From the NCBI GenBank assembly GCA_946544115.1, contig CAMNLW010000002.1:6729-70728 (forward strand): 64,000 nucleotides of DNA. The letters run 5' to 3'. Shown here in pieces: positions 16,369 to 52,594 of the stretch. How positions within the stretch are numbered: the stretch's first letter is position 1; each line of letters begins with the position of its first letter. The notes beneath the pieces are model-generated. The model did no database searches. It worked only from the letters and a program-made list of their open reading frames with translations, and had not been told where the DNA came from. The position numbers and the translations under genes are program-made. This DNA is from an uncultured Verrucomicrobiota bacterium. Lineage in GTDB: Bacteria > Verrucomicrobiota > Kiritimatiellia > RFP12 > UBA1067.

Positions 16369-16445
16369 GTTCCACCTCCTCTGTTTGGTGCAATTATACC
16401 ATAATTTACCCTGCACCGCCCAATCGGCGAACACCGGATTGCACG

Positions 16446-22071: not shown

Positions 22072-23490
22072 TCAGACGCTTTTATCCTCCACCCCGTCCA
22101 GCCCCAGGCCGAAATCCGTGACAATCGAAATCAGGTTTTCCTTGAGTTCCGGTTCTACATCCAGCCTCTTCGCTATCGTCTTCACTCCGTGAAGAACAGT
22201 CGCGTGCGACTTTTCAAACTCCTTCGCGATCTCCGGCAGGCTCTTTGTCGTGTACTTTCGCGCGATATACATCGCGAGCTGGCGCGGCGTAACAAGCGAC
22301 ACCGTCCTTTCTATTGAAAGTATCTGCTCCACCGTCACGGAGTATTTAGCCGCCACCGCCGCCTGAATCTCCTTTATAGTGACCTTTTTCTGCTTCTTCT
22401 CCTTTTCTATGAAGTCTTTGAGAAGGTGCGATAGTATCTCGTTGTTGAGTTTTATGGTGCTGTCGAGTTTCATCATAACCGAAACCTTCCCAAGCGCGCC
22501 CTCCATCGCCCTCACATGGCTCTTTATGTTCTGGGCTATGAATTTAAGCGTGTCTTCTGGAACTGACGGTACCATACCCTCTGACTTCTTCTTCAGAATC
22601 GCAAGACGCGTCTCGTAGCTCGGCTGCTCGATCTCCTGGACCATACCCCATTCAAATCGCGATATAAGCCTCGGTTCTATCCCTGGCAGATCCTTCGGGG
22701 CGACATCGCTAGTCATTACAATCTGCTTGCCGTCGTTATGCAGAGAGTTGAATGTATTGAAGAATTCCTCCTGAAAGTCCTTTCCTCGGCTCATGAACTG
22801 TATATCGTCGACCAGGAGAACGTCTATCTTGCGGTACCTGTCGCGAAACTGCTGTATAGAGGAGCTCGTAAGTGCGTTCACATATTCGTTCAGAAACCTC
22901 TCGGCTGTTAGATAGCATACCGACGAAGAAGGATTCTTCCTCTTTATGTCGTTTCCTATAGCCTGCATTATGTGGGTTTTGCCAAGCCCCGTCCCGCCGT
23001 GGATGAAAAGAGGATTGTACCCCTTCTTGCCCGGCTCCTTCGCAGCGCCTTTCGCCGCCGCGTGAGCCCAGCTGTTCGACGGACCCGTCACGAACTCTTC
23101 AAACGTGTAGTCTTCGTTGAGTGGCATAGTCGAAACGAAATGCGCCGCCGGCTTTTCAGGCGCCGCCGCGTCCTTGCTCTTGCGATGCGGCACCACTATC
23201 GCCGGGTTCAAGCTCTCGTCGAACTTGAACTCCAGCCTTATAGCCTCGCCCCCGTCGGATAGAACAAGCGCGTTTTTGAGTTTCGTCGAGTAGTTGTCGC
23301 GCAGCATCTCCGCCGCAAACTTGTTCGCGGTGAATATGGTGTAAAGACCGTCCTTCTCGGTTATTGAAGTCACCATGGAGAAATGGCGCCTCGCCTGATC
23401 TTTCTCCTCTTGGGTGGATAGCGTCGAGACATAAAGGTCTTTCGCCTTTTGCCAAGCGTCTTTCGCCCTTGTGTCCTGCATGTCTTTCAT
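22072..23490 (-). CDS. dnaA: Chromosomal replication initiator protein
   Basis: 472-aa product. AAA+ Walker A GGTGLGKTH, sensor motifs and a C-terminal DNA-binding domain (VTIKEIQAAVAAKYSV...). TGGTATTAT promoter upstream. Confidence 0.9.
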   Translation of the reverse strand: MKDMQDTRAKDAWQKAKDLYVSTLSTQEEKDQARRHFSMVTSITEKDGLYTIFTANKFAAEMLRDNYSTKLKNALVLSDGGEAIRLEFKFDESLNPAIVVPHRKSKDAAAPEKPAAHFVSTMPLNEDYTFEEFVTGPSNSWAHAAAKGAAKEPGKKGYNPLFIHGGTGLGKTHIMQAIGNDIKRKNPSSSVCYLTAERFLNEYVNALTSSSIQQFRDRYRKIDVLLVDDIQFMSRGKDFQEEFFNTFNSLHNDGKQIVMTSDVAPKDLPGIEPRLISRFEWGMVQEIEQPSYETRLAILKKKSEGMVPSVPEDTLKFIAQNIKSHVRAMEGALGKVSVMMKLDSTIKLNNEILSHLLKDFIEKEKKQKKVTIKEIQAAVAAKYSVTVEQILSIERTVSLVTPRQLAMYIARKYTTKSLPEIAKEFEKSHATVLHGVKTIAKRLDVEPELKENLISIVTDFGLGLDGVEDKSV

Positions 23491-23955
23491 CTTTTTCTTC
23501 TTTCAAGTTTCGCATATATAATACCATAATTTTTGACGCCATGGGCATAAAAGAAATAGTCATATGTCTACACTTTATCAACAGCCTCATGTTGATAACT
23601 ATTGTCTCCCGCGCGAGGACGCAATTTGAATGTTCCTGAATATATACCGTTGCCGACGCCCTGTTACAATTGACCCTCCCAAACAACCCCTCGCGAAACC
23701 ACTGATTTTATTGCGGCTTTTGGCCACCACCCCTCTCAAAGCCCTATAAACATTGGCTCTCGACGCCTGTTGATAACCGTTAGATAATGGTTCACATAAG
23801 TTCACAATTTTCCCCTTGACAAAATGCCGCCTTGTCATGAAACCCTTGTTTTTCAGGCTTTTTTGAACATTTCTCCTCCGCAGATTGACGCATAATACAG
23901 AAAATATTTTTGTTCACAACCTAGTAGATAATATGGTATAATGCCCGCCAGTGAA
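23491..23955. promoter_or_regulatory. dnaA-mnmG intergenic region with DnaA-box-like motifs; candidate oriC or dnaA autoregulatory region
   Basis: A 465-bp non-coding spacer, lower in GC than its flanks. Contains ttatcaaca, tgttgataa (twice) and TGTGAAC-type variants (gttcacataag, gttcacaatt, ttgttcacaac). Also contains divergent promoters for dnaA and mnmG. Confidence 0.45.
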
Positions 23956-26013
23956 ATGAACAGCAATCACTTCGAAATCATCGTTGTCGGCGGCGGACAC
24001 GCCGGAGCGGAAGCAGCCCTCGCGTCCGCCAGAATGGGAGCCAAAACACTCCTCGTCACCTCATGCCGTGACGCCATCGCGCGAATGCCCTGCAACCCTT
24101 CTATCGGAGGCCTCGCCAAAAGCCATCTCGTCTACGAACTGGACGCAATGGGCGGCGAAATGGGTAGAAACGCCGATGCCACGGCCCTTCAGTCAAAAAC
24201 CCTCAACCTCAGCCGCGGCCCCGCAGTATGGGCCACCCGCGCCCAATGCGCCAAGCTGGAATACACCCGCAGAATGCAGCAGGTTGTCGAAACCCAGCCC
24301 AACTTGACCGTACTCGAGGACAGCGTAATAGACTTGATCGTCGACAATGATGGTCAAACTCTGTCTCCTCCAAGTGCTGATGGCCAAACTGCGCTTGACC
24401 AATTCTCAGTCTGCGGAGTCAAAACTCTTCTCAGTGGCTCTTTCTACGCACGCTCCATAGTCGTAACCGCCGGTACTTCCCTTCGTGGCAGAATATGGAT
24501 AGGAAAAGAGTCAAAAGAGAGCGGCGGCGATTCCCGCCCTGCCGTGAACCAGCTCTCGGCCGCGCTTTCCCGCCTTGGCTTTGACTTGATACGCCTTAAA
24601 ACCGGTACTCCTCCGCGCCTCAAGGCCTCATCCTGCGATTTTACCAGATGTTTGCGGCAGGATGGCGAGTCGCCCCGCCCATTGTTCCACGTGGAACAAT
24701 CTACAGCCTCCGATTCCTCTTCCATATCATCGCCTCCAGGCGCCGCAATGTTCCACGTGGAACAATCTGCCGCCTCCGATCCCTCTTTCATATCATCGCC
24801 TCCAGGCTCCGCAATGTTCCACGTGGAACAATCTACAACCTCCGATCCATCTTCCATATCATCGCCTCCAGGCGCTGCAATGTTCCACGTGGAACAATCT
24901 GCCGCGCTTTCTCCTGCTGAAAAGGGCGGCAATCCCCCGATGTTCCACGTGGAACATTGCCCGCCGCTGCCCGAAATGCCGTGCTGGCAGACCCATACAA
25001 CGCCTCTCACCCACCAGATAATACGGGATAATCTATCCAATTCAGCCCTCTACGGCGGCGCGATCCAGGGAACCGGCGTTCGATACTGCCCGTCGATAGA
25101 GGATAAAATCGTCCGCTTTGCCGACGCCGACCAGCACCATGTTATGCTGGAACCCGAGGACTCCGCCGGGACGGTGATCTATCCCAACGGTCTCAGCTGC
25201 AGCCTGCCGCGCGATGTACAGGAGAAAATGGTTCATTCTGTGCCGGGCCTTGAAAACGCCGAGTTCCTGGCTTACGCCTATGCCATAGAATATGACGGAA
25301 TCGACGCGCGCGAGCTTAAACATTCCCTTGAATCCAAGCGCATACGCGGCCTGTTCTTTGCCGGACAGGTCAACGGCACGACCGGCTACGAGGAAGCCGC
25401 CGCACAAGGCTTCATGGCAGGCGTGAACGCCGTCTTTTCCGCGCGCGGTGAAGAGCCGCTTGTCTTGAGCCGTCAAGATGCCTACATAGGCGTCATGATA
25501 GACGATCTCGTGACGAAGGGGACAGATGAACCCTACAGAATCTTCACCAGCCGCGCCGAGCGCCGCCTTATCCTGCGCCAGGATAACGCCCGCTACCGCC
25601 TTGCCGATGCCGCCGAGCGGATAGGCATACGTCCGCGAGCCTTCCTGGACGAGACGCGCCGCTTTATGGCGATCCTCGATAAAGCCCTTGCCGAAAACCG
25701 CGCTGCCACCGTTATCGACGCCTCTCTGCCGCCGGAAGCATGCCGACGCCTTGACGATGAACTTGCAATTATGCGACGCTACGCGCCATACATAGAGCAG
25801 GAAAAACGGGCGGCAGAACGGGCCAAAGCCGACGAAACATTGGCCATTCCCCGGTGGCTGGACTACGACAAGTGCGTCGCCGTGAGGTTCGAAAGCCGCG
25901 AAAAGCTGAAGAAGTACCGCCCCGAAAACCTTGCGCAGGCTTCTCGCATACCGGGCGTGAACCCCAGCGATGTGGCGATTCTTGCTATTATAATAAGGAG
26001 AGGCCATGTATAA
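23956..26013 (+). CDS. mnmG: tRNA uridine-5-carboxymethylaminomethyl modification enzyme MnmG/GidA, carrying an in-frame repeat insertion
   Basis: [21 protein letters not shown] (FAD-binding GGGHAG), [13 protein letters not shown] and [16 protein letters not shown] all align with E. coli MnmG. Start taken at 23956 because the ATG at 23941 lies inside the TGGTATAAT -10 element. Confidence 0.85.
24672..24960 (+). repeat. In-frame tandem repeat inside mnmG (4 x 66 bp plus a 60-bp variant), each unit carrying the perfect palindrome TGTTCCACGTGGAACA
   Basis: Palindromes start at about 24683, 24749, 24815, 24881 and 24941. Encodes repeated FHVEQS(A/T)(A/T)SD(P/S)S(S/F)ISSPPG(A/S)AM units. The native MnmG segment (P-x-FSF in E. 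coli) corresponds to the final PMFHVEH copy. Confidence 0.85.
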
Positions 26014-26049
26014 TCGCCCCTGAGAAGGGGGCTTGCTGCAAGGATGGAA

Positions 26050-26166
26050 AAAAGTTAAAAAAGTCTGTCATCGATCGTCACGCCGTGCATACATTCTCTT
26101 GGTTAAACTTGTTGCTCGAACCGAAGCGTCATCTTCAGCGCTTCGGTTTCGTGTATCTAGAGCACG
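26050..26166 (+). repeat. Copy 1 of a ~117-bp direct repeat that contains a GC-rich hairpin (cgaaccgaagcg...cgcttcggtttcg)
   Basis: Near-identical to 26320-26436 (2-3 mismatches). Lies 36 bp after the mnmG stop. Confidence 0.8.
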
Positions 26167-26199
26167 TCTTCCCTCCTAAAAACACCCCCCTGGGGGTTG

Positions 26200-26310
26200 A
26201 AGGGCGCTGGTTGGGGGGTAGCACCGTGCTACCCCTAGGGGTAGCGCCGCGCTACCCCCGGGGTAGGGTTCGGCTACCCTCAGAGGGTAAAAAAACTACC
26301 CCCTCCCTGC
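26200..26310 (+). repeat. Tandem GGGGTAGC...GCTACCCC palindromic hairpins
   Basis: ggggtagcaccgtgctacccc and ggggtagcgccgcgctacccc are perfect 10-bp-arm hairpins. They are followed by degenerate copies (gggtagggttcggctaccc; gagggtaaaaaaactaccccctc). Confidence 0.7.
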
Positions 26311-26319
26311 CGCCAAAAA

Positions 26320-26436
26320 AAATCGTAAAAAAGTTTGTCATCGGTCGTCACGCCGTGCATACATTCTCTTGGTTAAACTTGTTGCTCGAACCGAAGCGTC
26401 ATCTTCAGCGCTTCGGTTTCGTGTATCTAGAGCACG
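26320..26436 (+). repeat. Copy 2 of the ~117-bp direct repeat
   Basis: Same sequence as 26050-26166, offset by 270 bp. Followed immediately by the strong promoter at 26486. Confidence 0.8.
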
Positions 26437-26485
26437 CCTCTCCTCCCGGTTTTTCCACCCGCAAAAAAAAAATTCGCCACCCCCA

Positions 26486-26515
26486 TTGACAAGCGAACAG
26501 AAAATATGATACAAT
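26486..26515 (+). promoter_or_regulatory. Sigma-70-type promoter with a consensus -35 and an extended -10
   Basis: TTGACA (26486-26491), an 18-nt spacer, then TGATACAAT (TACAAT 26510-26515). This is the only clear -35/-10 pair in the window. Confidence 0.6.
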
Positions 26516-26521
26516 ACCCGC

Positions 26522-26744
26522 GTTCTTGAGCAAGGAAGGGGTTTCGGATGGGATGTCCGAGCCTGTGGTTAACGGACAAGGTCAATCCAGCCGTCAGCCC
26601 TGAACTGCGAGGGGACAACAAGTTAACCACCTGTAGTGGACTGATGGCGACGGCGGTCGGGTGACCGCAGGAGCTGCGGAAAGCGAAGGGTACGAGCGAG
26701 GGTCCAACAAGCCCGAACTCACAAAAAAAGAAAGAAACAGAAAA
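26522..26744 (+). ncRNA. Conserved, probably structured, ~220-nt 5' leader (copy A)
   Basis: About 85-90% identical over ~180 nt to the reverse complement of 54080-54260. Shared blocks: ggatgggatgtccgagcctgtggttaacggacaaggtcaatccagccgt..gccctgaactgcgaggggacaa.aagttaaccacct, ggcggtcgggtgaccgca and caacaagcccga. Internal complementarity is visible (gtggttaac / gttaaccac; gcggtc / gaccgc). Confidence 0.55.
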
Positions 26745-27473
26745 ATGAAGAAGCTCATGCTTGTTGCTGCTGTTGCAGCGATTGCTGGCGGCGCGTTCGC
26801 CGCTTGCGAGGAAGATACCGCGTGCGTTTACGCGTACAAGATGACCCTCACGGGCAAGTCCACGGTTCCGCTCGCCAAGAAGGGCAATGCCTCCAAGTGC
26901 GTTGACGCCGCTTGCTTCCGCAAGGTCGGTTCCTACAAGGTCACTGGTTATGTCTTCGGCACGACCACCGACAACACCAATCCTGACGAGTGCATCGAAG
27001 GTTGCGCTTGCAACGATTTCTCCGCGATCAAGTCCGTTCTCTGGAACACTGGCACCAAGACGCTCCTGACCGACGCGCTCGAGATCAAGCAGCTCGACCT
27101 CATCGGCGCTGATGCCAAGTCCGCTGAAATCGTCGCCACGCTTGGCGATCTCACGCTCGCCGGCTTCGGCAAGTACAACACGAAGACCCTCAAGCTCACG
27201 TCCGCGTCGGGCAACTTCGCCGGCCAGGTCGCCGCTCCCAAGTGCTCGACCTGCACGTACAATGCTGACACCTGCGATGACACCTGCGAAGAGACCGACT
27301 CGGCCGTGTTCGCGGTTTGCACGCTGGAGGCCACTACCGCCGAGACGACCGCTGCTTACGGCAAGTGGAGCCTCAAGACCAACGCTGCCGCCGTCAAGAA
27401 GCTCACGAAGAACTACTCTGAAGAGGGCACGGTTCTCATTCCGTCGAACGTGAAAGTAGTTCAGGTTCCGTAA
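26745..27473 (+). CDS. Secreted Cys-rich protein (243 aa) of unknown function
   Basis: Signal peptide MKKLMLVAAVAAIAGGAFAA, then 13 Cys in the mature part (CEEDTAC, CVDAAC, CIEGCAC, CSTCTYNADTCDDTCEE). The track ORF 26661 is an upstream extension through the leader. Confidence 0.55.
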   Translation: MKKLMLVAAVAAIAGGAFAACEEDTACVYAYKMTLTGKSTVPLAKKGNASKCVDAACFRKVGSYKVTGYVFGTTTDNTNPDECIEGCACNDFSAIKSVLWNTGTKTLLTDALEIKQLDLIGADAKSAEIVATLGDLTLAGFGKYNTKTLKLTSASGNFAGQVAAPKCSTCTYNADTCDDTCEETDSAVFAVCTLEATTAETTAAYGKWSLKTNAAAVKKLTKNYSEEGTVLIPSNVKVVQVP

Positions 27474-27560
27474 TTCCAACGATTGAGTGAACGCTAAAAC
27501 GGGCGGGGGGGCTTTTAAAAGTCTTCCTGCTCGTTTTCACATGAAAAAATGAGGTACGAC

Positions 27561-28574
27561 ATGCTTAGAACGGTTTTCATCTATGTGGCCCTGATGGCTG
27601 TGCTTGCCGGATGCCGGCGGCAGAGCGATCGGCATGTCGTGCTTTCCGTCAACGGCCACGATCTCACGGAGGAGATGATTTCAAGCCGTGCCAATCTCAT
27701 GGTTGCGCTTCGGCATCATCGAAATCCGAAGTTCTCCGATGATGATGCGTTGAAGCTGAGGGAGACATTCAGGCGGGGATATGGAAACGTGTTCATAAGG
27801 GACGCTGTTTTAGCCGATTTCGCAAAGTCGCGCGGAATATCGATTCCCGACAGGATTCTTGCAGAATGCCGCGCCAAGGCGTTCGCCGCCCAGCGAAACC
27901 GCGGCGACAAGAACTTTGAAGATATGGTTGTGCGCGCAGGTGTCGACAGGCGGGAATTTGACGCCCAGATACGCACCGAGGCTCTTGTGGTTGCAGTCAA
28001 GGAGCATCTCGCGCAGAGCAACCCGACGAATTTCACGACCGCCTACGCTGATGACCTTATAAAGAGGATGAAGGCGTTCAACGCCGATATGGTCAAAACC
28101 AACGCGCTGGTTTATGCGCGAGCGACAAATGTGTGGATGCGTCTTAACGCAGGTGCCGATTTCGCGCAGACGGCGAAGGAGTTTACCGAGGTTCCCGAAG
28201 AAAAAGACGATTGCGAGTGGGGCATTCTAGACGATTCGTTTCTGCGCGACAGCCCTCGGCTTCTGGAGGCCGTCAAGAAGTTGCGCGTAGGCGAATTCAC
28301 GCCGCCGGTCGAAGGGGACAACGCCTTGTTGATCGTGCGGTTGGACGGTCTTTCAAATGATGGCGCGTATGAGCTTTCGCGCATAGTGTTTCTGCTTCCG
28401 ATGATGCTCGACATAGCCTCCAGAGAGGAGATCATCGAGACGGCCTATAAAGAGCATTACGACAGCCTTTACAAGACGACTCTAAAGGATTTAATCGATT
28501 CTGCCGACATTGTTCGGATGAACCAAGATTCAGAGCAAACAAGCAAGGAGGACAAAAATGAAGCAAAAAGGTAG
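27561..28574 (+). CDS. Lipoprotein with SurA-N-like chaperone and parvulin/PpiC-like regions
   Basis: Lipobox LAGC at residues 16-19. VLSVNGHDLTEEMI resembles the SurA N-domain. EFTPPVEGDNALLIVRL resembles a parvulin core. GAGG lies 9 nt before the ATG at 27561. Overlaps the next gene by 17 nt. Confidence 0.45.
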   Translation: MLRTVFIYVALMAVLAGCRRQSDRHVVLSVNGHDLTEEMISSRANLMVALRHHRNPKFSDDDALKLRETFRRGYGNVFIRDAVLADFAKSRGISIPDRILAECRAKAFAAQRNRGDKNFEDMVVRAGVDRREFDAQIRTEALVVAVKEHLAQSNPTNFTTAYADDLIKRMKAFNADMVKTNALVYARATNVWMRLNAGADFAQTAKEFTEVPEEKDDCEWGILDDSFLRDSPRLLEAVKKLRVGEFTPPVEGDNALLIVRLDGLSNDGAYELSRIVFLLPMMLDIASREEIIETAYKEHYDSLYKTTLKDLIDSADIVRMNQDSEQTSKEDKNEAKR

Positions 28575-31500
28575 TTCACTGGCAGCCGTGAAGATCATAT
28601 GCGCAGCCGCGATCATGGCGATTGCGACCGCATCGGCCGAAACGGCGGATGGAGGGCTGGTTTACAGCACATCCACCGATTACAAGGTCGGTGAGTGGAA
28701 TTCTCATTTTGTGGCGATAAAAGAGCTGGCCGACGCGGAGCGAATCCCATTGGTCGTTTTCTGGGCGAACCCCGGTTGCCCCAAGTGCAAAACGCTTGAA
28801 GCGGCGCTTAACACCGATACGGCCAGGGCTTGGCAGAAGAACAAAGGATACTATTTCGTATTTGCCTTGGACATTAAAACAACAGACGGAAGCAAGGCCA
28901 AGTCCTTCGCCAGACACGCGAGCGGCCATTTCCCGTATATAGCCGCATACTGGAACAACGGTGTCTCCAAAAAGCCGATCAAGACGACTTTTTCGGGGCG
29001 CAACGGTGAAATGCCCGTGAAGAGCGGCTCCTTGGCAGAGCAGTTCATGGCCTCCATAGATAGGTATATAGGCAACTATGTCAAGCCCGTCAATTATGTC
29101 GGCGGCAAGGTTTCGCTTGAAGAGACCGACGGCAACCGCCTGGAGGCCGAGGAGGGCACGAGCGAGATTTCCTTCGAGATGGTTCGCGACGAGACCGCCG
29201 CCGAAGTCGCCACGAACAACATTGTAAAGGTTATCGGGCCGGACGGCAAGACGGCGCAGACAGTGTCCGTCACGTGGACTGCCGGGCAGACAAAGCAGAC
29301 TGTTACGGTCGATATATCAAAAGTCTCCTTCTCCAAGGATGGCGAAAAGGCCCTCTTGGTTGCAGCCGATGCCAACGGCAGCGAGCAGGCGACCAACACT
29401 GTCACATATGTGGCCGGTTCCGGCGAAAGTTCGGCGAATCCTCTTTGGATCGGCGAGCGCTCAGCGCCCAAGACCACCGGAAAACTTCTCACGGCGACAA
29501 CGGCTCCCGCTCTTCAGTTCGGCGAGTGGACTATGGATCTAGATACGGCCAAGGCGACAGCGGCGGCGGCCGAAGGCGACGCATACACGCTCGTCTCAGT
29601 TGAAGGTTCACTCTGGTGCCATGATTGCGCCAATACCGAGCGCAACTTCCTGTCCGTCACCGACAAGGACGGCAATAACAGGTTCAACAAGTGGGCCGCC
29701 GACAACAATGTGGCGCTTGTCGCCATTGATGTGCCGAATTTCACAACGAACAGTTCCGAAAATATAACAAGACCTACGATTCTTTCGCGCAAGGCAATTA
29801 CGACCACTCTTGCTTATGAAATTCCCGCTTCCGGATTTTATGATGTATCGAAAGGCGGTGCGCCTCAGTCTCTTACACTGCCTATGGTCCGCAGCGGTCT
29901 CGGCTACCTTACGCGCAAGGGCGTTTCGGATGAAACCGCCGCCGCCGCCCTCGAGCGCAACCGCCAGCTCGTGACGACCGACTTCTCTGAGGGAGGCTTC
30001 CACAGTGCGGCGGATTCGTCGCCTTACAGGACCGGTGTGCCGATTTTCGTCGTTCTCGACAAGAAGGGCAATGTTGCGGCCCGCCTTACGCGTTTCGCCT
30101 CAGTGAGCCCGATGGCGTCTGCCAAGGACGACTGGGACAACATCATCAAGCGCTTCGACGAGCTTCTTGCAATCGCCCGCGGCGACCACAACGACGGCGG
30201 CGTTCTCGAAAACGACTTCCCGTCCGCCAAGATCGCCGGCTTCAAGGCGAACGGCGGCAGTGCGAGCGGCGAGATAAGCCACGTGGATTATCGCGACATT
30301 TTTGCGCTTCAGGATTTCACCGGCAATGCGCTGCTCAAGACTACTGTCTCCGGCGAGAGCGCCGCAGAAGTGACGGTTTCGTATATCAAACTCGGCGCGG
30401 ACGGCAAGGAGCAGGTCGTCGGCGAGCCTGCGACGGGCAAACTGTCCGACGGCATCGAGCTGGAATACACGTTCACGGTTGCGGGCGAGTATTTCGTCAA
30501 AGTGTCCGGCGATCTGGCCGGCGACGATTTTGGCATTGCGAACGAGACGGCCGGCAATTTCCACTCCTACGCGGTTTCCAGCACGGTGGTCTACGTACCG
30601 CAGGAGGAAAAGGCCAGCGGCAATCCGGCGGCAGGTTCCGACCAGGTGACGATGCGCCTTGAAAAGGGTCAGATGTACAGGATCGAAGGACTCAACACAT
30701 CGAAGGTCACCGATATTCTTGAGCCGACCGACTCCGAAGATCCTTACTGCATCTTCTACACGGCGCTTGTCGACGGCGACAAGTCGCTTACGACGCAGAA
30801 GAAGGATGTCACGGTTTCTTACCAGAAGTGGACGCCGGGAACCGTGGGCTTCACCGCCGCCAACAAGTCTGTGACCGAGAGCGCGGGCGAGGTCAAGGTT
30901 TCCCTCTCGCGCACAGGTGGCGCGTCGGGCGACATAACGGTCAAAGTCGCTCTTGATGAAGAGGCGACCACTTTGTATGACAGCGACGGCAAGGCCCGCT
31001 TTGAATTCAAAGATGCCGAACTCATATTGAAGGAAGGCTGGCTCGGCGAAACGAACGTCACGGTGGCGGTCTTGGACGATGCACGTTTTGACGGCAGCGG
31101 CGATGTCGCGCTGAGCCTGGAAGTGGTCAAGGACGAGAACGGCGACACGGTTCTTGCAACGACAAACTTTGTGCTCGCGGTGAGGGAGGACGACAAGCAG
31201 GCCGCAGGAAAGGCAGCCTTTGTCGGCGCGGATCCGTTCTTCTCGCGCAGGGCGACGGTCTATGCGCGTGAGAGCGATGGCGCCACTGTTTACGCGAAGC
31301 GGGTGGAGGCGTCCGACGGGTATGTCACCGTCAAGGTCGCCGCGACGAACGGCGCGAAGACCGAGATCGGCGGCGTCGAGACCAATCTGCTCGTGTGGGC
31401 CAACCACAAGTTCGATGAGCAGGCGGTAAAGGTTTCCGGCATCGCGGCGGGCAGGTCGGCCAGGCTCACGCTCACCAGTCCTACGGACGGGCTGAGGATT

Positions 31501-33105
31501 CTTTCGGCGTCCAACTATGTGACCGTTGTTTCCGTGGCGGACGACGCGCCCGCGTTCTCGACGACCGAGAAAGCCGAGAAGATCTATCGTTATGTCGCGG
31601 TCAGCAATGTCTATCCCGTGGTTCTCGCCGAGAGCGTGGACGCCTCCGCCGCGAAGCTTACTTTCACAAAGCTTTCCGGCACGCTCCCCGCCGGTCTCAC
31701 CGCGAAGTACGACGCCGATTCCTGCGCCCTTGCCGTGATCGGCACGCCGACAGCCAAGGCGGGCGTGTACACAATGGTCTACCAGGTGACGCAGAGGGTC
31801 GGGACGAAGACCACGCCCGGTCTTACGATAGAGTTGACCTACACCATCCAGGATCCGACTGTTGCGGGCGGCGACGAAGCCGACTACAACGAGGCTGTCG
31901 CGGCGGGCCGGTCGCGTACCATCAAGGACATTCCTGTGATCGACGCCGAAGCGAAGCGTCTCGCGGGCGTTCTGCAGGTTACGATACCGCAGAACGGCAG
32001 GGCGAGCGCGAAGTTCACGTGCGCCGACGGTGCGGTTTCGTTCAGCGCCAAGGGGTGGTCGGCGTTCGGCGAGAGCGGCGAAAAGGCGCTTTCGGCCAAG
32101 CTTGCTTCGACGAAGAAGGGCTACTCCATGACGCTCGTCGCCAGCAACGACGGCTCCGTCACGGCGGAGATCGATACGCCCGATACGGAAGAAACCCCGC
32201 TCGTTGCTTCGAGCGACGGCAAAGTCTGGAGCGCCTCCAATGCTGCGGAGCCGTGGAAGGGCGTGTATACCGTCGCGCTGAAGGTCGAGAGCGTTGAAGA
32301 GACGCGCGAACAGATTGCGCCTCGCGGATATGGATATCTCACGCTCAAGCTTGAAGGAACCGGAGCGTTGCGCGACGGACGCGTGACTTGGAGCGGAATT
32401 CTGCCGAACGGCATGTCGGTTTCCGGCAGCACAATACTGTCCGGCAACGAAAACGACGACTGGGCGACGCTCCCGATATACAAAAAGTCTTCGCTGGACG
32501 AGATTGCCCTTGTTGCCAGGATGTATCCCGGGCTTGCAACGCGTTCCGTCATCGAGGATGACTCGGCCGACGCTGTCTGGCGTCATGCCGAGCGTATCGA
32601 AAGCGCAAACGTGGAATGGACCGCCGAACTTGGCGTCTACGGCAGCATCTTCGACAAGACGGCCAATCTCCTTGACTGCTGCGAGGAATACCAGAAGTCC
32701 ACGTTCGATCTGGTGTTCGACACCTCGATGATAGGAGAGACGTATCGCGGCGCCGTGCAAAAGGCGGGCGTCGCACAGCTGGTCGTTTCCGACACCAGGC
32801 TCAGTCTTGAAAACCGCCCGGCGGGAATGTCGTCCATTTCGTTCAACAAGTCGCTTGGAACGGTCTCCGGCAGTCTGCGCCTGCCGTGTGAAGATGGTTA
32901 CATCTCGGCCGTCTACAAGGGCGTTCTGTTGACTGGCTGGGGCGAGGGATGCGGTTGCAGCGACGAAGATGAAGAGTTCGGTCTTCCGTTCGTCATCGGA
33001 GCGTTTTACTTCACCGACAGAATCGGCTATGAAGCAAAGTCTGGCAGTCGCGTCGTAGAGCGGCAGCTTTCGGTGAAGCGCGGAGGTTCGGTTTTTACAG
33101 AGTAA
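28558..33105 (+). CDS. Giant secreted protein A (1515 aa): two thioredoxin-like CxxC domains, PPC-like, Calx-beta and putative Ig-like domains, plus a family-specific C-terminal domain
   Basis: Signal peptide. LVVFWANPGCPKCKTL and SLWCHDCANTE...PIFVVLDKKGNVAARLTRF are Trx-like. The Calx-beta signature is VTESAGEVKVSLSRTGGASGDITVKV. The putative Ig-like segment is LPAGLTAKYDADSCALAVIGTPT. The C-terminal about 360 aa (GVYTVALKV...GYGYLTLKLEG...CGCSDEDEE...FYFTD) are shared with the other four giants. Confidence 0.6.
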   Translation: MKQKGSSLAAVKIICAAAIMAIATASAETADGGLVYSTSTDYKVGEWNSHFVAIKELADAERIPLVVFWANPGCPKCKTLEAALNTDTARAWQKNKGYYFVFALDIKTTDGSKAKSFARHASGHFPYIAAYWNNGVSKKPIKTTFSGRNGEMPVKSGSLAEQFMASIDRYIGNYVKPVNYVGGKVSLEETDGNRLEAEEGTSEISFEMVRDETAAEVATNNIVKVIGPDGKTAQTVSVTWTAGQTKQTVTVDISKVSFSKDGEKALLVAADANGSEQATNTVTYVAGSGESSANPLWIGERSAPKTTGKLLTATTAPALQFGEWTMDLDTAKATAAAAEGDAYTLVSVEGSLWCHDCANTERNFLSVTDKDGNNRFNKWAADNNVALVAIDVPNFTTNSSENITRPTILSRKAITTTLAYEIPASGFYDVSKGGAPQSLTLPMVRSGLGYLTRKGVSDETAAAALERNRQLVTTDFSEGGFHSAADSSPYRTGVPIFVVLDKKGNVAARLTRFASVSPMASAKDDWDNIIKRFDELLAIARGDHNDGGVLENDFPSAKIAGFKANGGSASGEISHVDYRDIFALQDFTGNALLKTTVSGESAAEVTVSYIKLGADGKEQVVGEPATGKLSDGIELEYTFTVAGEYFVKVSGDLAGDDFGIANETAGNFHSYAVSSTVVYVPQEEKASGNPAAGSDQVTMRLEKGQMYRIEGLNTSKVTDILEPTDSEDPYCIFYTALVDGDKSLTTQKKDVTVSYQKWTPGTVGFTAANKSVTESAGEVKVSLSRTGGASGDITVKVALDEEATTLYDSDGKARFEFKDAELILKEGWLGETNVTVAVLDDARFDGSGDVALSLEVVKDENGDTVLATTNFVLAVREDDKQAAGKAAFVGADPFFSRRATVYARESDGATVYAKRVEASDGYVTVKVAATNGAKTEIGGVETNLLVWANHKFDEQAVKVSGIAAGRSARLTLTSPTDGLRILSASNYVTVVSVADDAPAFSTTEKAEKIYRYVAVSNVYPVVLAESVDASAAKLTFTKLSGTLPAGLTAKYDADSCALAVIGTPTAKAGVYTMVYQVTQRVGTKTTPGLTIELTYTIQDPTVAGGDEADYNEAVAAGRSRTIKDIPVIDAEAKRLAGVLQVTIPQNGRASAKFTCADGAVSFSAKGWSAFGESGEKALSAKLASTKKGYSMTLVASNDGSVTAEIDTPDTEETPLVASSDGKVWSASNAAEPWKGVYTVALKVESVEETREQIAPRGYGYLTLKLEGTGALRDGRVTWSGILPNGMSVSGSTILSGNENDDWATLPIYKKSSLDEIALVARMYPGLATRSVIEDDSADAVWRHAERIESANVEWTAELGVYGSIFDKTANLLDCCEEYQKSTFDLVFDTSMIGETYRGAVQKAGVAQLVVSDTRLSLENRPAGMSSISFNKSLGTVSGSLRLPCEDGYISAVYKGVLLTGWGEGCGCSDEDEEFGLPFVIGAFYFTDRIGYEAKSGSRVVERQLSVKRGGSVFTE

Positions 33106-33130: not shown

Positions 33131-36100
33131 ATGAGCATAAAACACGTGGTTCTGGGTTTGGTCGCCGCGCTTGCGCCTGCATTGTTCGCTGCCTCGCCTT
33201 CGGCGGGCAGCTGTGAGTCCAGTGCGGTGACCGCCAAGGTTTCTCAAACGGTTCGTCTCGTAAGGGAGTGGAATCCTGATTCCGACAAATACGAAGACTC
33301 CGGGGTGTACTATTTCAAGGCTGTCCTGCGGCGCAGCAACGCCTACACGATTTGGACCGACTCATTCGGGACAAACGAGGTGGAGCTTGCGACACATGCG
33401 GCAGACCCCGTCAAGGACGACGACTTCGGCCCGTCGGCCGATTTCAACGATGTGGACGAAGGCGACAGCGCAATACGCATGGTCATGTATGTCGACGACT
33501 GGTACATAGACAAAGAAGATCCGTCCGAAAGCGATCCGTCGAGCTGGACTTACTATTTCGTCCTTACCGGCGCGGTCGGTACGGAAGTCACTCTGCACTT
33601 CTCGACTGGCGTTTTGATTCCTGCGGGCCGTGAAGACAGTCCTCTGCTCATAACGCCGTCCGGGAACGCGGCAACCGTCAGTCGCAATCTCGAGATTGGG
33701 GGGATGTACTATTTCAGGGCGCGTCTCACCGGGGGGCGGCTCTACGCATTCGGGACGGTCGGCGGCTCCGAAGACGAATCCTTGATATTGAACTTCTATC
33801 CCGAGGACAATTCCAATACGGTGTCCAATACGGTGACAGTATACGACGATGTGTCGTATGCCGGCGACGATTACAATTCCGGACATTTTATCGTTCCTTC
33901 CGCAACAGGCTACTACCAGATAGTCGTCGACGGTTCGGGTGAAAACGAAAGAGCCGCGTTTGGCCTTGTACACCAGCTCATACCGTCGCGCGCCATAGGG
34001 AGCCACGACGTTTCCGGGCTGGAGGTGGGTTCACCGGTCGAATTCAATGCTGGCTACAAGAGCAATACGATAAAGCATAGAGCCTACGACGAAATAATCG
34101 ACGAATGTCTGTTCAAGGTGGTTGCTGCGAAGAATGACAGGTTTGCTGTCTACACCGCCGGGGCGCAGACAAACCTTTTGATGCGCGTCTACGACAGGAA
34201 TGGAAAAATACTCGCCGAGAACACGTCCGACGGGTATGGCATGGATGTCCGATGCGCGTTCGAGGCGACTGCCGCCGGCAACTACTACATCGGCGTCTGC
34301 CAGAACATCGACGACGAGTTCACGACCGCGCCCGCCTACACTGCGGCGACGCTTCATCTTGCGAACGCTTCGGCGGTCGAGGGCTCGCCCGACGAGTGGG
34401 ATCCCGCCGACGACTCGCCCGACACGGCGACCGGTCTCGCGGCAGTGCCGGGGACTGCGGCGGACGATCCCTCCAAGGTCGATGTCGAGGGGCACGGATG
34501 GCACGCTCTCGGAATGACCGACTGGGCCGATACTTTCGTGATCGCCGCGCGCAGGGGCGTGACATACCGCTTCTCCACCACGGTTGAAGACGAATCCGCC
34601 GTGCGCAACAGGCTGAGCGCCGAAGTATTCACGCTTTCAGGAAAAACCGAGCGCACGTTTTCCGCCGTTTCCGGCGACATCAATCCTGGCGCGGCCGTTC
34701 CTCTCACGTTTACGGCTGCCGCAAACGCCGCTTATTATATAAGGATATCGGTTGAGGGCGGCAGCGGACTAGACTACCCGAACTACAAGGTACACTCCAT
34801 GGCCTACACGACGAGCGGCGCACAGCTCGGCATACTTACGGTGAACACTCCGGGAGCGCCTTCGGCGACATGGTCGCTCGGCTCAGAGTCGGTGAAGTAT
34901 CCCAGCGGCTCTTCGGTTCTCGTGAGCGGCACGCAGACCGTCAAGCTCTCCACGGTGAGCGGCTACAAGGCGGCGGTGTCGTCCACGACCGTCACCGTGA
35001 ACCCGGGCGCGAAGCCGACGGTCGTCGAAGTCAAGTACTCCGACACCTTCGACCCCAGGGACGACGCCCCATCCGGCAGGACGGGGAGGGTTTCCCACTC
35101 CGCCACAGCGCTCACCTTCAAGAACGTCGAAACCGAATACGCCAGGCGCACGCTCTGGGACGACGACCCCGAGGACAACTTCGCGATCACCGGCGCCGAC
35201 GGCTACTATTACGACATCTCTCTCAAGAATGTCGAAGGCGACGATGTGACGTTCTCCATAACCAACGCCGAGAATGGCGTCGTGGCCGAGAATGTGAAGG
35301 CCGTGAGCCAGCTCACGATGCCGAAGACGAAGTCCAAATACTTCCTCGCCGTGAAGAACGGCGACAAGGCGACTGCTTACGGCGGCTACTCGCTTTTCGG
35401 GAAGTTCGCGAACGTCGGCGCGATCAAGTTCGCGAGAACCGCGGTCTCCGCGAGGGAGAATGCGGCGTCCGTCGTGATCACCGTGAACCGCACGGCGAGG
35501 GACGGCGTGGTCCGCGTCAAGTACGGCACTGTGGCAGGCACCGCAAAGCCCGGCGAGGACTACATCGCCCAGAACGGCGTCCTTGAATGGGCCAACGGCG
35601 ACAACAAGGCGAAGACGATCACCGTCAAGCTCATCCCCGATCTCGTCCCCTTTTACGAAGGGAACAAGACGTTTACCGTGCAGCTCAAGGCGTTCGAGGA
35701 CGACGAGCGCGAGGCGTCGGAGTATCCCGCCTCCATCGTCGGCGGCGACACGTGCACGGTGACGCTCACCGAAACGTCGCGCGCGACGGACACCGTTGAA
35801 TCGGCCTACGCCAAGGTCGCCCCGAGGCTTGCGACCGTCAGAACCGAGACCGTCCCGCTCGAAACCGGCACTTTCTACGGCGTTCTCTCCGAGGACGGTT
35901 CGGCCCTCACGAACGGCCTGCCGCAGCTCGCCTCTGTGACGCTCACCGCCTCCGTCCCGACCTCGACGCGTCCGTCGCGGCTCTCCGCCAAGGTCGCCCT
36001 CGCCGGCAAGACCTACACGTTCACCGCGGAAGGCTGGAACGACGGCGAGACGGAAGGCACCCTTGAGCGCGAGCTTTCCCTCGTCCAGCGGCTCAACCGG

Positions 36101-37312
36101 CTCGACGAAGAAACCGGGCGCACGGTCTCCGTGACGGTCACGAACACGCTCGTGGTCACGGCGGCTTCCGGCGAGACCGCGGCGGACGGCGACTGGCTCA
36201 AGTCCGGCGGAACGGCGACGCTCGTCATGAATGTTCCGGACACGAACAACAAGGGCTATCAGGAGGAGATACGCTACACCGGCGCGATCTACCGCCAGAA
36301 CGCGAAGATACAGGACTACCTTACGGCCGTCACCAACTTCACCGGCTACTACACCGTCGCGCTCGCCGCTACGGGCGTTGACGCGCTGGAGGCACCCGCC
36401 GGGAACGGCTACATAACGCTCACCATCGACAACAAGGGCATGGTCAGGGCGGCGGGAATGCTCGCCGACGGGACTACGCGACCGTCGCTCTCCGTCGCGG
36501 CCTGCGCGATAATGGAAGATGAATCGTCCGCGAACGGCTACTCGATGTATGTGCCGCTCTTCTTCGCGAAATCGCCTGCTGTGTTCGGCGGCGAACTCAG
36601 GCTCTACGCCGGTGAATCGGGCGCGATCGTCGTCGATTCGTCCCGGCCGCTCGTCTGGAACAACGACAACGCCAGGCTCACCTACTACGGCGAAGAGGGC
36701 TACCGCCTTTCGCTCGACCCCGCAGGCGGCTGGTACGACAAGGTCGTCAACCTCCAGGCCTACTATCTCACGCGTGCGTTCGAGGTCGCCGCGCCCGACG
36801 CGTCGGAGTTCTTCTCCGAGGCGCTTACGGCCAACTCCGCGACGAAAGACTACCATTTCGTGGATGCGGTCCAGCCGGACGGCACGGCGGTCGATCTCGC
36901 GGGCGACGCGTTCTCGACGGCGAGGAAGACGCTCGTAAGAAGCGGCACGCTATACGACCTCGCGGCGAGCTCCAACCCGTGCAACGTGCAGGTAAAGCTG
37001 GCGCGCGCGACGGGCCTCGTCACCGGCACGTTCTCGCTCTGGAGCGAGAACGAGGACGGCTCGAAGCAGAAGGAGATCACCGGGCTCAAGCACTTCGGCG
37101 TCCTGGTGATGAACCGTGACGAGGCCGCCCCGCTCGACGGCGAGATTATCTGCGCGGGCTTCTGCACCCAGGCCATAAAGGTGAGCGACTACAACGAGAC
37201 GACTAGGCGCACAACGACGCGCAATATCACGGCCTCCATGCCGTTCAACCTCCTCGGCGTTGACCAGGGCGAGCAGGACTGGTGGGCCGACGACTGGGGC
37301 GAGCCCGAGTAA
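33131..37312 (+). CDS. Giant secreted protein B (1393 aa): at least 8 PPC-like domains, a Calx-beta domain and the family-specific C-terminal domain
   Basis: Signal peptide. Repeated beta-sandwich motifs (GVYYFKAVL, GMYYFRARL, TGYYQIVVDG, DTFVIAARRGVTYRFS, DNFAITGADGYYYDISL). Calx-beta (VVITVNRTARDGVVRVKYGTVAGTAKPGEDY). C-terminus ...WWADDWGEPE. Confidence 0.6.
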   Translation: MSIKHVVLGLVAALAPALFAASPSAGSCESSAVTAKVSQTVRLVREWNPDSDKYEDSGVYYFKAVLRRSNAYTIWTDSFGTNEVELATHAADPVKDDDFGPSADFNDVDEGDSAIRMVMYVDDWYIDKEDPSESDPSSWTYYFVLTGAVGTEVTLHFSTGVLIPAGREDSPLLITPSGNAATVSRNLEIGGMYYFRARLTGGRLYAFGTVGGSEDESLILNFYPEDNSNTVSNTVTVYDDVSYAGDDYNSGHFIVPSATGYYQIVVDGSGENERAAFGLVHQLIPSRAIGSHDVSGLEVGSPVEFNAGYKSNTIKHRAYDEIIDECLFKVVAAKNDRFAVYTAGAQTNLLMRVYDRNGKILAENTSDGYGMDVRCAFEATAAGNYYIGVCQNIDDEFTTAPAYTAATLHLANASAVEGSPDEWDPADDSPDTATGLAAVPGTAADDPSKVDVEGHGWHALGMTDWADTFVIAARRGVTYRFSTTVEDESAVRNRLSAEVFTLSGKTERTFSAVSGDINPGAAVPLTFTAAANAAYYIRISVEGGSGLDYPNYKVHSMAYTTSGAQLGILTVNTPGAPSATWSLGSESVKYPSGSSVLVSGTQTVKLSTVSGYKAAVSSTTVTVNPGAKPTVVEVKYSDTFDPRDDAPSGRTGRVSHSATALTFKNVETEYARRTLWDDDPEDNFAITGADGYYYDISLKNVEGDDVTFSITNAENGVVAENVKAVSQLTMPKTKSKYFLAVKNGDKATAYGGYSLFGKFANVGAIKFARTAVSARENAASVVITVNRTARDGVVRVKYGTVAGTAKPGEDYIAQNGVLEWANGDNKAKTITVKLIPDLVPFYEGNKTFTVQLKAFEDDEREASEYPASIVGGDTCTVTLTETSRATDTVESAYAKVAPRLATVRTETVPLETGTFYGVLSEDGSALTNGLPQLASVTLTASVPTSTRPSRLSAKVALAGKTYTFTAEGWNDGETEGTLERELSLVQRLNRLDEETGRTVSVTVTNTLVVTAASGETAADGDWLKSGGTATLVMNVPDTNNKGYQEEIRYTGAIYRQNAKIQDYLTAVTNFTGYYTVALAATGVDALEAPAGNGYITLTIDNKGMVRAAGMLADGTTRPSLSVAACAIMEDESSANGYSMYVPLFFAKSPAVFGGELRLYAGESGAIVVDSSRPLVWNNDNARLTYYGEEGYRLSLDPAGGWYDKVVNLQAYYLTRAFEVAAPDASEFFSEALTANSATKDYHFVDAVQPDGTAVDLAGDAFSTARKTLVRSGTLYDLAASSNPCNVQVKLARATGLVTGTFSLWSENEDGSKQKEITGLKHFGVLVMNRDEAAPLDGEIICAGFCTQAIKVSDYNETTRRTTTRNITASMPFNLLGVDQGEQDWWADDWGEPE

Positions 37313-37315
37313 CCG

Positions 37316-38440
37316 CTACAGCGGCGGTATCGCCTTTTTCACTGCGGCAAGCAGTGCTTGGGGCGAAGGTTGTGTATAGCGGGCGTGCATCCCGCCGCCC
37401 GCGTGGCCGGTGATTGCATCCGTGATATGCGGCGGAACCCCCGCCTCGTCCATCATTGAGATGAATGTGGCACGCAGCGAATGAAAGCTTGCACGTCCGT
37501 TGCCGTGTGCAAAAACGCCGCAGCTTTTGAAAGCTGCGGCGATTTTCCGCGATGGACGATGACGAGCATCTTCGGAGAAAAGATATGGATCTCCGTCAGG
37601 AGGAGAGGTTCGTCGCCGCAGTATAAGATTTCGCACCTGGTTCGTCAGCGGAATCTTGAGTGGAATAGGTTTGGTGAGATGCGTCTTGTTCGGTACAACG
37701 CGCAGGAACCTCCCATCCGCCTCAATTTCGGACCATTCCAGCCAGGCGACATCCGAAAGCCTGAGCCCGGTCGAATAGCCTATCACAACCATATCCGCCA
37801 GGTCTCGATTCCTGCTCTGCAGATAACCATGCACTTTGCGGCTCTCGTCAAGCGACAGCCGCCTGTAGTGCTCGTGTCTGCAAAGCGGTTTCACGGTGCC
37901 TGCTCCGGACGTCTCCCAAAGCCCACGGTCGAGGCCGAGCGTGCTCCAGACGCGTCGATAAAACACGAGCATCCGACGCGCTGATATATATGCCCCCATA
38001 AGTCTCGCTGTTATCTTTGCACATGCATCCTTCTTTAGTATGTCTTCTGGCAAAAGGCCAAGTTCATCAGCCGCTTCGGCAAGAATCCGCATCCAGCGTT
38101 CATAGCTCGTTTCGCTTGCTTCGGAAATCGTTCCAGCTGCGCGAGCCATGAATTCGTCCCAGAGATTTCTCCATGTGAGAGACGCCAGAGCAGAACGTCG
38201 GCGAAGCTCAAGGTCGGCCCGCGCGCCAAGCCGTGATAGATGCTCAAGCCAGGCCTGCTCGCTGTCTTCCGGCGGCAGAAGTTTTCGCGCCCGCTTCTTC
38301 GCAATGTTGAAATCGCCCGTTTTCAGCGAAATCCACTTGCTCCTCCCGCCAAGGCGCGTGACGAGATAAAGGATGTTACCGCGGAGTTGAATAGATCCAA
38401 AGTTAAGTTTCATGGAGTGAATAATAGCAAATTTGCGCAA
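37316..38440 (-). CDS. Tyrosine site-specific recombinase / phage-type integrase
   Basis: Catalytic residues recognisable: GLRLSD (Arg I), HSLRATF (HxxR) and GGMHARYTQ (Tyr). Its stop is 3 nt from the stop of giant B on the opposite strand. Confidence 0.75.
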   Translation of the reverse strand: MRKFAIIHSMKLNFGSIQLRGNILYLVTRLGGRSKWISLKTGDFNIAKKRARKLLPPEDSEQAWLEHLSRLGARADLELRRRSALASLTWRNLWDEFMARAAGTISEASETSYERWMRILAEAADELGLLPEDILKKDACAKITARLMGAYISARRMLVFYRRVWSTLGLDRGLWETSGAGTVKPLCRHEHYRRLSLDESRKVHGYLQSRNRDLADMVVIGYSTGLRLSDVAWLEWSEIEADGRFLRVVPNKTHLTKPIPLKIPLTNQVRNLILRRRTSPPDGDPYLFSEDARHRPSRKIAAAFKSCGVFAHGNGRASFHSLRATFISMMDEAGVPPHITDAITGHAGGGMHARYTQPSPQALLAAVKKAIPPL

Positions 38441-47428: not shown

Positions 47429-47485
47429 TTTTGTCCTCCGTTTGATACATTCTAGTTTCTTTAAATGTTTAATATTCGTCATCCG

Positions 47486-51370: not shown

Positions 51371-51406
51371 GGCGCCGACCTTCTGATTATTTAGACCCCT
51401 GATTAA

Positions 51407-52513: not shown

Positions 52514-52594
52514 TTGCAATCTCACTGATGTATATTAAGAAAGGGTGGGGTGTAGCAATACACCTCACCCATTCTCGACTTGCGTCAAGTCAAC

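Follow-up and report, generated by a model that had tools for sequence, protein, structure and literature searches.

Among thioredoxin-fold enzymes, CxHC and CxYC dipeptides mark oxidising or isomerising catalysts such as protein disulfide isomerase (PDI), DsbA and DsbC, and domains of the Etrx and PilB type are supplied with electrons by CcdA or DsbD and pass them to methionine sulfoxide reductases. The reductases TRP14 and Staphylococcus aureus TrxP have WCPDC at their active site, a rare motif that has been described as otherwise unique to TRP14-type reductases (PMC11217419, PMC6196236), and Chlamydia DsbH is a reducing periplasmic oxidoreductase (PMC5193440). The extracytoplasmic disulfide chemistry of strict gut anaerobes is poorly understood. 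Here we describe gene A and its paralogs A' and C, found in a 64,000-nucleotide stretch of DNA from an uncultured gut bacterium of the Verrucomicrobiota, class Kiritimatiellia (contig CAMNLW010000002.1; the whole stretch is referred to below as the window). Proteins A and A' are giant exported proteins with two thioredoxin-fold domains, intact CxxC motifs and a third conserved cysteine pair near the C-terminus, and with moderate confidence we propose that they contain a tethered, PDI-like module for thiol-disulfide exchange outside the cytoplasm. A preliminary description of this DNA placed its finding at the coordinates of gene A alone. The whole system spans ~26486-54267, and that description did not extend to the C-terminal CxC pair, to the conserved cassette, in which a peptidyl-prolyl isomerase (PPIase) and a small cysteine-rich protein are also encoded, or to how large the family is. 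The three paralogs and the parts of A are the following (nucleotide (nt) positions in the window; lengths in amino acids (aa)).

28558-33105, + strand: gene A, 1515-aa exported protein with both thioredoxin domains (translation, Pfam, family search)
28645-29091, + strand: thioredoxin-like domain 1 of A, residues ~30-178 (AlphaFold 2 (AF2), Foldseek, profile search)
29110-29427, + strand: Calx-beta-like beta-sandwich spacer of A, residues ~185-290 (AF2 strands, Foldseek)
29503-30192, + strand: thioredoxin-like domain 2 of A, residues 316-545, with W-CHDC (Pfam, AF2, Foldseek, profile search)
30835-31146, + strand: Calx-beta domain of A, residues 760-863 (Pfam 20.7 bits, below cut-off)
31825-33102, + strand: C-terminal region of A, ~residues 1090-1515, with CC at nt 32677-32682 and CGC at nt 32950-32958
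38473-42312, - strand: gene A', 1279-aa paralog with CQHC, CPDC and a C-terminal CEC at nt 38581-38589 (translation, motif mapping)
47486-51370, - strand: gene C, 1294-aa paralog at the A position of cassette 2, colinear with A and A'

Translation and motif mapping bear out the cysteine motifs of the preliminary description, namely C74-P-K-C77 (nt 28777-28788) and C354-H-D-C357 (nt 29617-29628) in A, and C81-Q-H-C84 (nt 42061-42072) and C353-P-D-C356 (nt 41245-41256) in A'. With 13 cysteines in 1515 residues, ~0.1 CxxC per protein is expected by chance, so that two at homologous positions in two paralogs are beyond chance. That description also presented C as a colinear paralog without cysteine at these positions, and the translation and alignment agree, with S-E-S-T (nt 51143-51154) and W-D-A-G-L (nt 50375-50389) at the two sites. 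The signal peptides it had assigned to A and A' are, by inspection, of the Sec type, as is that of C (in A, AIATASA is followed by ETADGG after the predicted cleavage), and its Calx-beta/Ig-like assignment holds on the evidence of Pfam and of a family profile that matches the NCX1 calcium-binding domains (E=1.1e-6). The Calx-beta hidden Markov model (HMM) scores 57.4 bits on B and 49.9 bits on B', the partner giants introduced below, and 26.4 bits on A' and 20.7 bits on A, both under the cut-off of 27. The spacer between the two thioredoxin domains matches NCX1/CALX calcium-binding domains in Foldseek with a target-normalised template modelling (TM) score of ~0.6. The remainder of the proteins consists of adhesin-type domains (PPC, Calx-beta, He_PIG). 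The C-terminal region of A, part of which is common to B, B' and C, has no Pfam match and no PDB sequence match.

Four independent lines of evidence, namely Pfam, profile matches to the PDB, AF2 models and Foldseek, show that each of the two domains has a thioredoxin fold; within the thioredoxin superfamily they come nearest to Thioredoxin_7. Thioredoxin_7 (PF13899) scores 32.2 bits on residues 324-403 of A, above the cut-off of 27, and 20.8 bits on residues 57-131 of A'; domain 1 of A reaches only 15.7 bits (Thioredoxin_2), and domain 1 of the homologs P0003, P0006 and P0007 scores 28.5-31 bits. Profiles of each domain, built from ~36 diverse relatives and searched against all PDB sequences, matched S. 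aureus DsbA (3e-5), AGR3, AGR2, DsbC and ERp18/TXNDC12 for domain 1, and the Xylella disulfide isomerase 3fk8 (3.5e-4, WCTDC), Chlamydia DsbH (2ju5) and PA1234 (1z6n, WCPDC) for domain 2, the latter over alignments that span the CxxC and the G-x-P loop of strand 3. The AF2 models have the canonical order of elements in both domains (predicted local distance difference test score ~90 for domain 1, with beta-CxxC-alpha, and 91.9 for domain 2). C74 and C354 are modelled directly before helices 75-84 and 355-365, and P126 and P495 directly before strand 3, in putative cis-Pro loops that read FPY (nt 28930-28938) in domain 1 and GVPIF (nt 30034-30048) in domain 2; the latter domain also contains a ~100-aa insertion between strands 2 and 3. 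Foldseek returned 1sen/ERp19 for domain 1, and thioredoxin-fold descriptions in 49 of the 50 matches listed for domain 2, with DsbH (2ju5) at the top and DsbA, StoA, TlpA-like proteins, PilB-N and Etrx2 further down. The homology of domain 1 with domain 2 (hhalign 96%, E=2e-9) points to an internal duplication. Single sequences were far less informative: phmmer with residues 1-560 of A against the PDB gave one spurious serpin match (E=0.45), and hhalign of the domain-1 profile with a single E. coli TrxA sequence gave a probability of 2% with the CxxC region aligned correctly. The claim of the preliminary description that each protein has two thioredoxin-fold domains is thus upheld, including the Thioredoxin_7 match above cut-off in A, the thioredoxin topology of the models and the position of the putative cis-prolines; the functions it had suggested (substrate trapping, adhesion by mixed disulfides, metal reduction) are candidate roles. 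The alternative it had raised, in which the CxxC cysteines form structural disulfides with distant partners, finds no counterpart in the full-length alignment, where neither domain contains any other conserved cysteine.

The domains belong to a large family. An HMM search run exhaustively over 1.84 billion representatives of 50%-identity clusters found 906 at E<=1e-3, of which 336 reach E<=1e-30. Among the 150 best matches listed, most are ~1500 aa long and aligned across the whole N-terminal module; an earlier word-indexed homolog search had returned 7 fragments only. A scan of one genome per species located 28 loci, all in gut or rumen metagenome-assembled genomes (MAGs) mostly labelled Kiritimatiellae/Kiritimatiellia or Verrucomicrobia. 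The few members with a source name are called "hypothetical protein", with no functional name among the members examined, and protein A itself is encoded identically in the public MAG assembly GCA_002395905.1. Some relatives depart from the usual layout. Proteins with domain 1 alone stand beside cassettes in five loci (L014 17809-18894, L015 19703-20806, L018 17019-17753, L019 19777-20511 and L026 2442-3716); they carry CGHC, CGYC, CPYC or CPKC, are mostly fused to repeat- or Ig-type regions, and have a signal peptide in four of five cases. In L027 and L028, 2214-aa proteins have a Calx-plus-domain-2 unit embedded mid-chain.

Conservation within this family is concentrated on the residues expected of an active thioredoxin site. 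Both CxxC motifs are present in 150 of the 157 sequences of an alignment (A, A', C and 154 database relatives) with a mean column identity of ~30%; the CxxC and putative cis-Pro positions are conserved at 96-99%, the cis-Pro residues themselves at ~97%. Domain 1 is CxHC in 94 of 148 sequences (CGHC in 22) and CxYC in a further 22, domain 2 is CPDC in 114 of 152, and a Trp precedes the first Cys in 152/152. The domain-2 insertion holds invariant Ser, Gly, Tyr and Arg residues. The frequent WCPDC raises the possibility that, as for TRP14 and TrxP, the module acts on small extracellular sulfur compounds such as cystine, persulfides or polysulfides in a sulfide-rich gut. That domain 2 carries the rare motif of TRP14-type reductases (PMC11217419, PMC6196236), and that all identified organisms are gut or rumen MAGs, would fit such a role; the likeness is, however, confined to the motif, since Pfam gives no DUF953/TRP14 match at E<=0.1 in spite of the WCPDC, no reductase is present to recycle the domain, and there is no clear need for a 1500-aa scaffold, a PPIase and partner B, so that we regard a role of this kind as highly improbable.

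A third pair of cysteines is conserved along with the two CxxC motifs. In the full-length alignment of 134 sequences, cysteine conservation exceeds 90% only at C74/C77, at C354/C357 and in a C-terminal CxC (C1465 96%, C1467 92%), which is most often CGC and is CEC in A'; a vicinal CC at 1374/1375 is conserved in 63-75%. The CxC is also gone in paralog C. A second protein, P0097, has SxxC and DxxC at the thioredoxin sites, and its CxC is deleted; the contig that carries it is too short to include a first cassette gene. It is 41% identical to P0021 and distant from C, and its nesting among intact A-type proteins implies that its cysteines were lost independently of the C lineage. Among ~128 sequences with both thioredoxin motifs intact, the CxC is wholly absent in one, the short P0038 (1204 aa). 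Joint loss in two of two lineages has a rough hypergeometric estimate of ~4e-4, which makes chance unlikely, and the idea that the three pairs act jointly depends chiefly on it.

Joint loss would also be expected if all pairs contributed to one shared metal site, and the pairs might be ligands of Cu, Zn, Fe or Fe-S, as in copper proteins with a thioredoxin fold of the Sco or ScsC type, with a function in metal capture, tolerance or electron transfer. CxC and vicinal CC are motifs common in metal sites, three pairs are conserved, and no thiol-redox partner was found nearby. Against this, W-CxxC with a cis-Pro is the signature of redox-active thioredoxins, the residues conserved at >=85% include no His or Met ligand columns, the three pairs lie hundreds of residues apart in separate domains, and the nearest matches in sequence and structure are oxidoreductases. 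Taken together, this makes metal binding quite improbable.

Paralog C lacks all six conserved cysteines. As to whether it retains other catalytic residues, a question left by the preliminary description, the answer is divided: the domain-1 Pro and several scaffold residues (W353, G350, D391, P393 and S446-G447) are kept, and the domain-2 cis-Pro is lost. Its dN/dS (ratio of nonsynonymous to synonymous substitution rates) against strain L030 is 0.35, where A', B' and a housekeeping nuclease have values of 0.23-0.28, and a C-like protein of another species (L023, ~30% identity) occupies the same cassette position with GGLVWDA in place of WCxxC. C is old and still under purifying selection. A pseudogene was considered and rejected because the open reading frame (ORF) is intact in two strains, dN/dS is 0.35, and a Cys-free ortholog of ~30% identity exists elsewhere. 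C is instead probably a maintained pseudo-enzyme in which the scaffold has been kept and the chemistry has gone. Separately, when window 47486-54166 is set against L030, gene X, the PPIase gene and codons 1-480 of C show 100% DNA identity, and the remainder of C has dS 0.26 and 88% protein identity; this mosaic divergence suggests recent recombination within cassette 2.

The persistence of C without these cysteines under purifying selection also speaks for a further explanation, in which the thioredoxin-like domains are non-catalytic binding or structural units with static disulfides and the proteins are adhesins or surface-layer components. It gains from the adhesin-type composition of the remaining protein (PPC, Calx-beta, He_PIG), and the invariant Ser, Gly, Tyr and Arg of the domain-2 insertion could form a ligand pocket. 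Yet cysteines conserved at 96-99%, an invariant Trp and conserved cis-Pro loops at ~30% identity exceed what a stabilising disulfide needs, non-catalytic thioredoxin domains such as the PDI b domains and paralog C typically lose such features, and the coupled loss of the distant CxC is hard to explain by purely local disulfides. We therefore consider a non-catalytic binding or structural role unlikely, and continue with thiol-disulfide exchange as the preferred reading.

The window covers the origin region of the chromosome, with dnaA at 22072-23490 (-), dnaN at 20722-21816 (-) and mnmG at 23941-26013 (+). Its five giant ORFs form two convergent cassettes with a tyrosine recombinase in between. 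Cassette 1 reads small protein, PPIase, A, B on the + strand and cassette 2 reads X, PPIase, C, B', A' on the - strand. In addition to A, A' and C, they comprise the following features.

26486-26515, + strand: sigma-70-like promoter of cassette 1, TTGACA-18-TACAAT, 11/12 matches, TG extension
26535-26673, + strand: structured leader RNA of cassette 1 (covariance model 138.9 bits)
26745-27473, + strand: small exported cysteine-rich protein, first gene of cassette 1, 242 aa, 12 Cys, no Pfam match
27549-28574, + strand: PPIase with SurA_N_3 and Rotamase (Pfam) and lipobox LAGC, directly upstream of A here and in related loci
33131-37312, + strand: gene B, 1393 aa, PPC and Calx-beta (Pfam), follows A in most related loci
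34292-34303, + strand: site of the lone Cys of B, Cys390
37316-38440, - strand: tyrosine recombinase of the phage-integrase family (Pfam), between the convergent cassettes
42323-47482, - strand: gene B', B-type partner of cassette 2 (Pfam), real start probably Met19
46235-46246, - strand: site of the lone Cys of B', Cys415
51407-52525, - strand: second SurA/parvulin PPIase, lipobox-like N-terminus VCGC (Pfam, N-terminus)
52595-54064, - strand: gene X, first gene of cassette 2, 489 aa, 5 Cys, no Pfam match
54130-54267, - strand: leader RNA of cassette 2 (covariance model 144.9 bits; alignment)

The arrangement recurs elsewhere. In different MAGs, at least 15 loci have PPIase, A and B in this order; L023, L030 and L031 repeat the succession of a C-like gene, B' and A', and L024 has B' followed by A'. 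Homologs of the cysteine-rich small protein, with 6-19 Cys each, lie upstream of the PPIase in 18 related loci; with the window's copy included, Cys 83 and 89 (numbering of that copy) are present in 19/19 and Cys 21 and 52 in 18/19. Both PPIases resemble PrsA-type lipoprotein foldases in their combination of SurA-N, parvulin and a lipobox-like N-terminus, and that of cassette 1 is probably such a PrsA-like foldase. B-type partners have no conserved Cys pair; their one invariant cysteine (16/16) lies in GVCQ at the end of a PPC domain and could be a mixed-disulfide partner for A. In L033 (GCA_002395905.1, DGVK01000062.1), at the counterpart of window 33131 onward, the start of B is not called within ~1 kb after A and short opposite-strand ORFs are called instead, and B-type giants may be under-annotated.

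Upstream of the first gene of each cassette, and downstream of a strong sigma-70-like promoter (26486-26515 in cassette 1), lies a leader RNA of ~140 nt, whose core is near-identical between the cassettes and whose flanks have diverged; the first ~20 codons of X are shared with cassette 1 together with this 5' leader. The covariance model finds 15 copies, the two of the window and one each in L001-L007, L012, L021, L022, L026, L030 and L031, and those in loci anchored at 10001 are located ~2 kb upstream of A. Its pairs are formed in 90% of cases, against 22-47% in slid controls, with compensatory changes in 6 pairs. No Rfam family matches the leader, and scans of the whole window turned up neither a tRNA nor an Rfam family. 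The leader may be a regulatory or antitermination element for operons of 10-14 kb. Between mnmG and the promoter of cassette 1, a 131-bp direct repeat (94% identical, 26048-26176 and 26316-26446) flanks GC-rich palindromic hairpins (26214-26259); pieces of the repeat recur upstream of cassettes in L003 and L004.

The tyrosine recombinase adjoins A' also in L015 (79% identity), L030 and L031; its position beside A' is thus kept in other strains and species, and L026 is also among such loci. The enzyme might take part in phase or antigenic variation. Two other features of the window lie outside the cassettes. A giant ORF at 6604-16509 (-) encodes a 3301-aa protein with reprolysin-type M12 metallopeptidase, CotH kinase, chitobiase C-terminal/Fn3-associated, lamin-tail and laminin-G-like domains. 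The mnmG gene (23941-26013) contains a tandem DNA repeat at 24676-24905 (period ~65 bp, copies 91-95% identical), and the match of its 690-aa protein to the GIDA domain falls into two separate parts.

From the folds, active-site geometry, conservation, joint loss and gene order described above, we infer redox activity, a relay, a direction of electron flow, clients and a location beyond Sec export in the following way. The N-terminal ~550 residues would form a redox module composed of a CxHC-type domain, a Calx-beta-like spacer and a WCPDC-type domain with a DsbA-style inserted cap. All three Cys pairs would be redox-active and would exchange disulfides among themselves and with a client, in a relay whose logic resembles that of PDI, QSOX and DsbD, with the catalyst tethered to a giant periplasmic or surface-exposed protein. 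Domain 1 may be oxidising or isomerising and domain 2 reducing, and the distal CxC may serve as shuttle or substrate. The cysteine-rich product of the first gene and the invariant lone Cys of B are plausible clients; since the cassette also encodes a lipoprotein PPIase, both classical folding catalysts would be encoded beside them. External disulfides, such as those of host mucin, cystine or persulfides, are alternative targets. As a speculation, ambient thiols of the reducing gut lumen could drive reduction or isomerisation. The Cys-free C at the A position coincides with the Cys-poor X (5 in 489 residues) in the same cassette, which fits a client relationship.

Several observations weigh against this proposal. 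The correlation with the client comes from a single lineage and is not clean, since cassette 2 also holds the redox-intact A'. Neither the window nor the flanking regions of related loci yielded DsbB, DsbD/CcdA, VKOR or a flavoprotein, and the redox activity and its partner are predictions from sequence and models. A itself has CPKC and CHDC, which are not the family-typical dipeptides, and, by inspection, the buried acidic residue that classically lies six positions ahead of the first Cys is missing. No Foldseek E-value for domain 2 is better than 8e-3, a weakness that is probably due to the ~100-residue insertion between strands 2 and 3. Joint loss has been observed in two lineages only, and the relay presupposes that the C-terminal CxC can reach the thioredoxin sites.

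A more elaborate version of the proposal, which we put forward tentatively and with considerable doubt, is that a self-contained three-station relay (CxHC, then WCPDC, then the CGC near the C-terminus) forms part of a giant envelope or surface protein of gut Kiritimatiellia, is co-transcribed with a lipoprotein PPIase and a cysteine-rich client under a dedicated leader RNA, and operates without DsbA/DsbB or DsbD, either folding and cross-linking its own surface assembly or cutting host or dietary disulfide networks such as mucin. If active, the module would be a new way of placing thiol-disulfide catalysis on the cell surface or in the periplasm, in a family from an uncultured lineage common in ruminant and human guts, with possible roles in envelope assembly or in attack on disulfide-linked host polymers. 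The Cys-free paralog and the joint loss of three distant pairs offer natural controls for experiments.

Among known systems, both domains come closest, in sequence as in structure, to the Thioredoxin_7 proteins DsbH, 3fk8, AGR2/3 and ERp18; Chlamydia, the source of DsbH, is likewise a member of the PVC superphylum. These proteins have a single domain and ~130-170 aa, and none of them shows the ~100-aa insertion, the tandem of two domains or the fusion to a giant protein. TRP14/TXNDC17, S. aureus TrxP and Pseudomonas aeruginosa PA1234 have the identical WCPDC active site; TRP14 differs in being cytosolic and recycled by thioredoxin reductase (PMC11217419), and A has no family-level match to it beyond the motif. 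The ~100-aa, partly helical insertion of domain 2 is located where DsbA carries its helical cap, and DsbA appears in the Foldseek list; DsbA has a CPHC site and DsbB as its partner, and in domain 2 the motif is WCPDC, with no DsbA Pfam match and no DsbB seen. Pneumococcal Etrx1/2 and the Neisseria PilB N-domain, also in the Foldseek list, are likewise extracytoplasmic thioredoxin folds that are envelope-attached or fused, but they are of the TlpA/ResA type, and no partners of that kind were seen at the A loci.

Among multi-domain systems, DsbD resembles A in having three conserved Cys pairs in three domains, with a thioredoxin-like one among them, and an Ig-type sandwich, and the Foldseek and profile matches include DsbD-gamma relatives such as DsbH. 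It differs in that the beta-sandwich of A has no Cys pair and A has two thioredoxin domains where DsbD has one. The central membrane domain whose Cys pair brings in electrons in DsbD has no counterpart: A, A' and C have no DsbD/CcdA Pfam match and, by inspection, no hydrophobic segment past the signal peptide. QSOX, also secreted and built of several domains, hands electrons on from its thioredoxin CxxC to other Cys pairs in the chain, as proposed here for A, but an Erv/ALR FAD domain was not detected in A, and O2 is an unlikely acceptor since the host is presumably a gut anaerobe, given the gut and rumen sources. Literature searches returned no tethered bacterial counterpart of PDI or QSOX, and nothing relevant on Kiritimatiellae with thioredoxin or mucin or on secreted mucin disulfide reductases. 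With PDI and the ERp proteins, A shares the placing of two catalytic-type thioredoxin domains and a non-catalytic spacer in one chain outside the cytosol; as further likenesses to PDI, domain 1 of the family is mostly CxHC and a PPIase is co-encoded with A. Unlike PDI, the spacer of A is a Calx-beta-like sandwich instead of b/b' thioredoxin domains, the second site is of the WCPDC type, the protein is bacterial, its module is fused to adhesin-type domains that total ~1000 aa, and it is not known to have an Ero1-like oxidase. Of the multi-domain families compared (PDI, DsbD, QSOX, DsbA and TRP14), none has this architecture. The A module is not a member of the PDI family, but by analogy it may work in a PDI-like manner.

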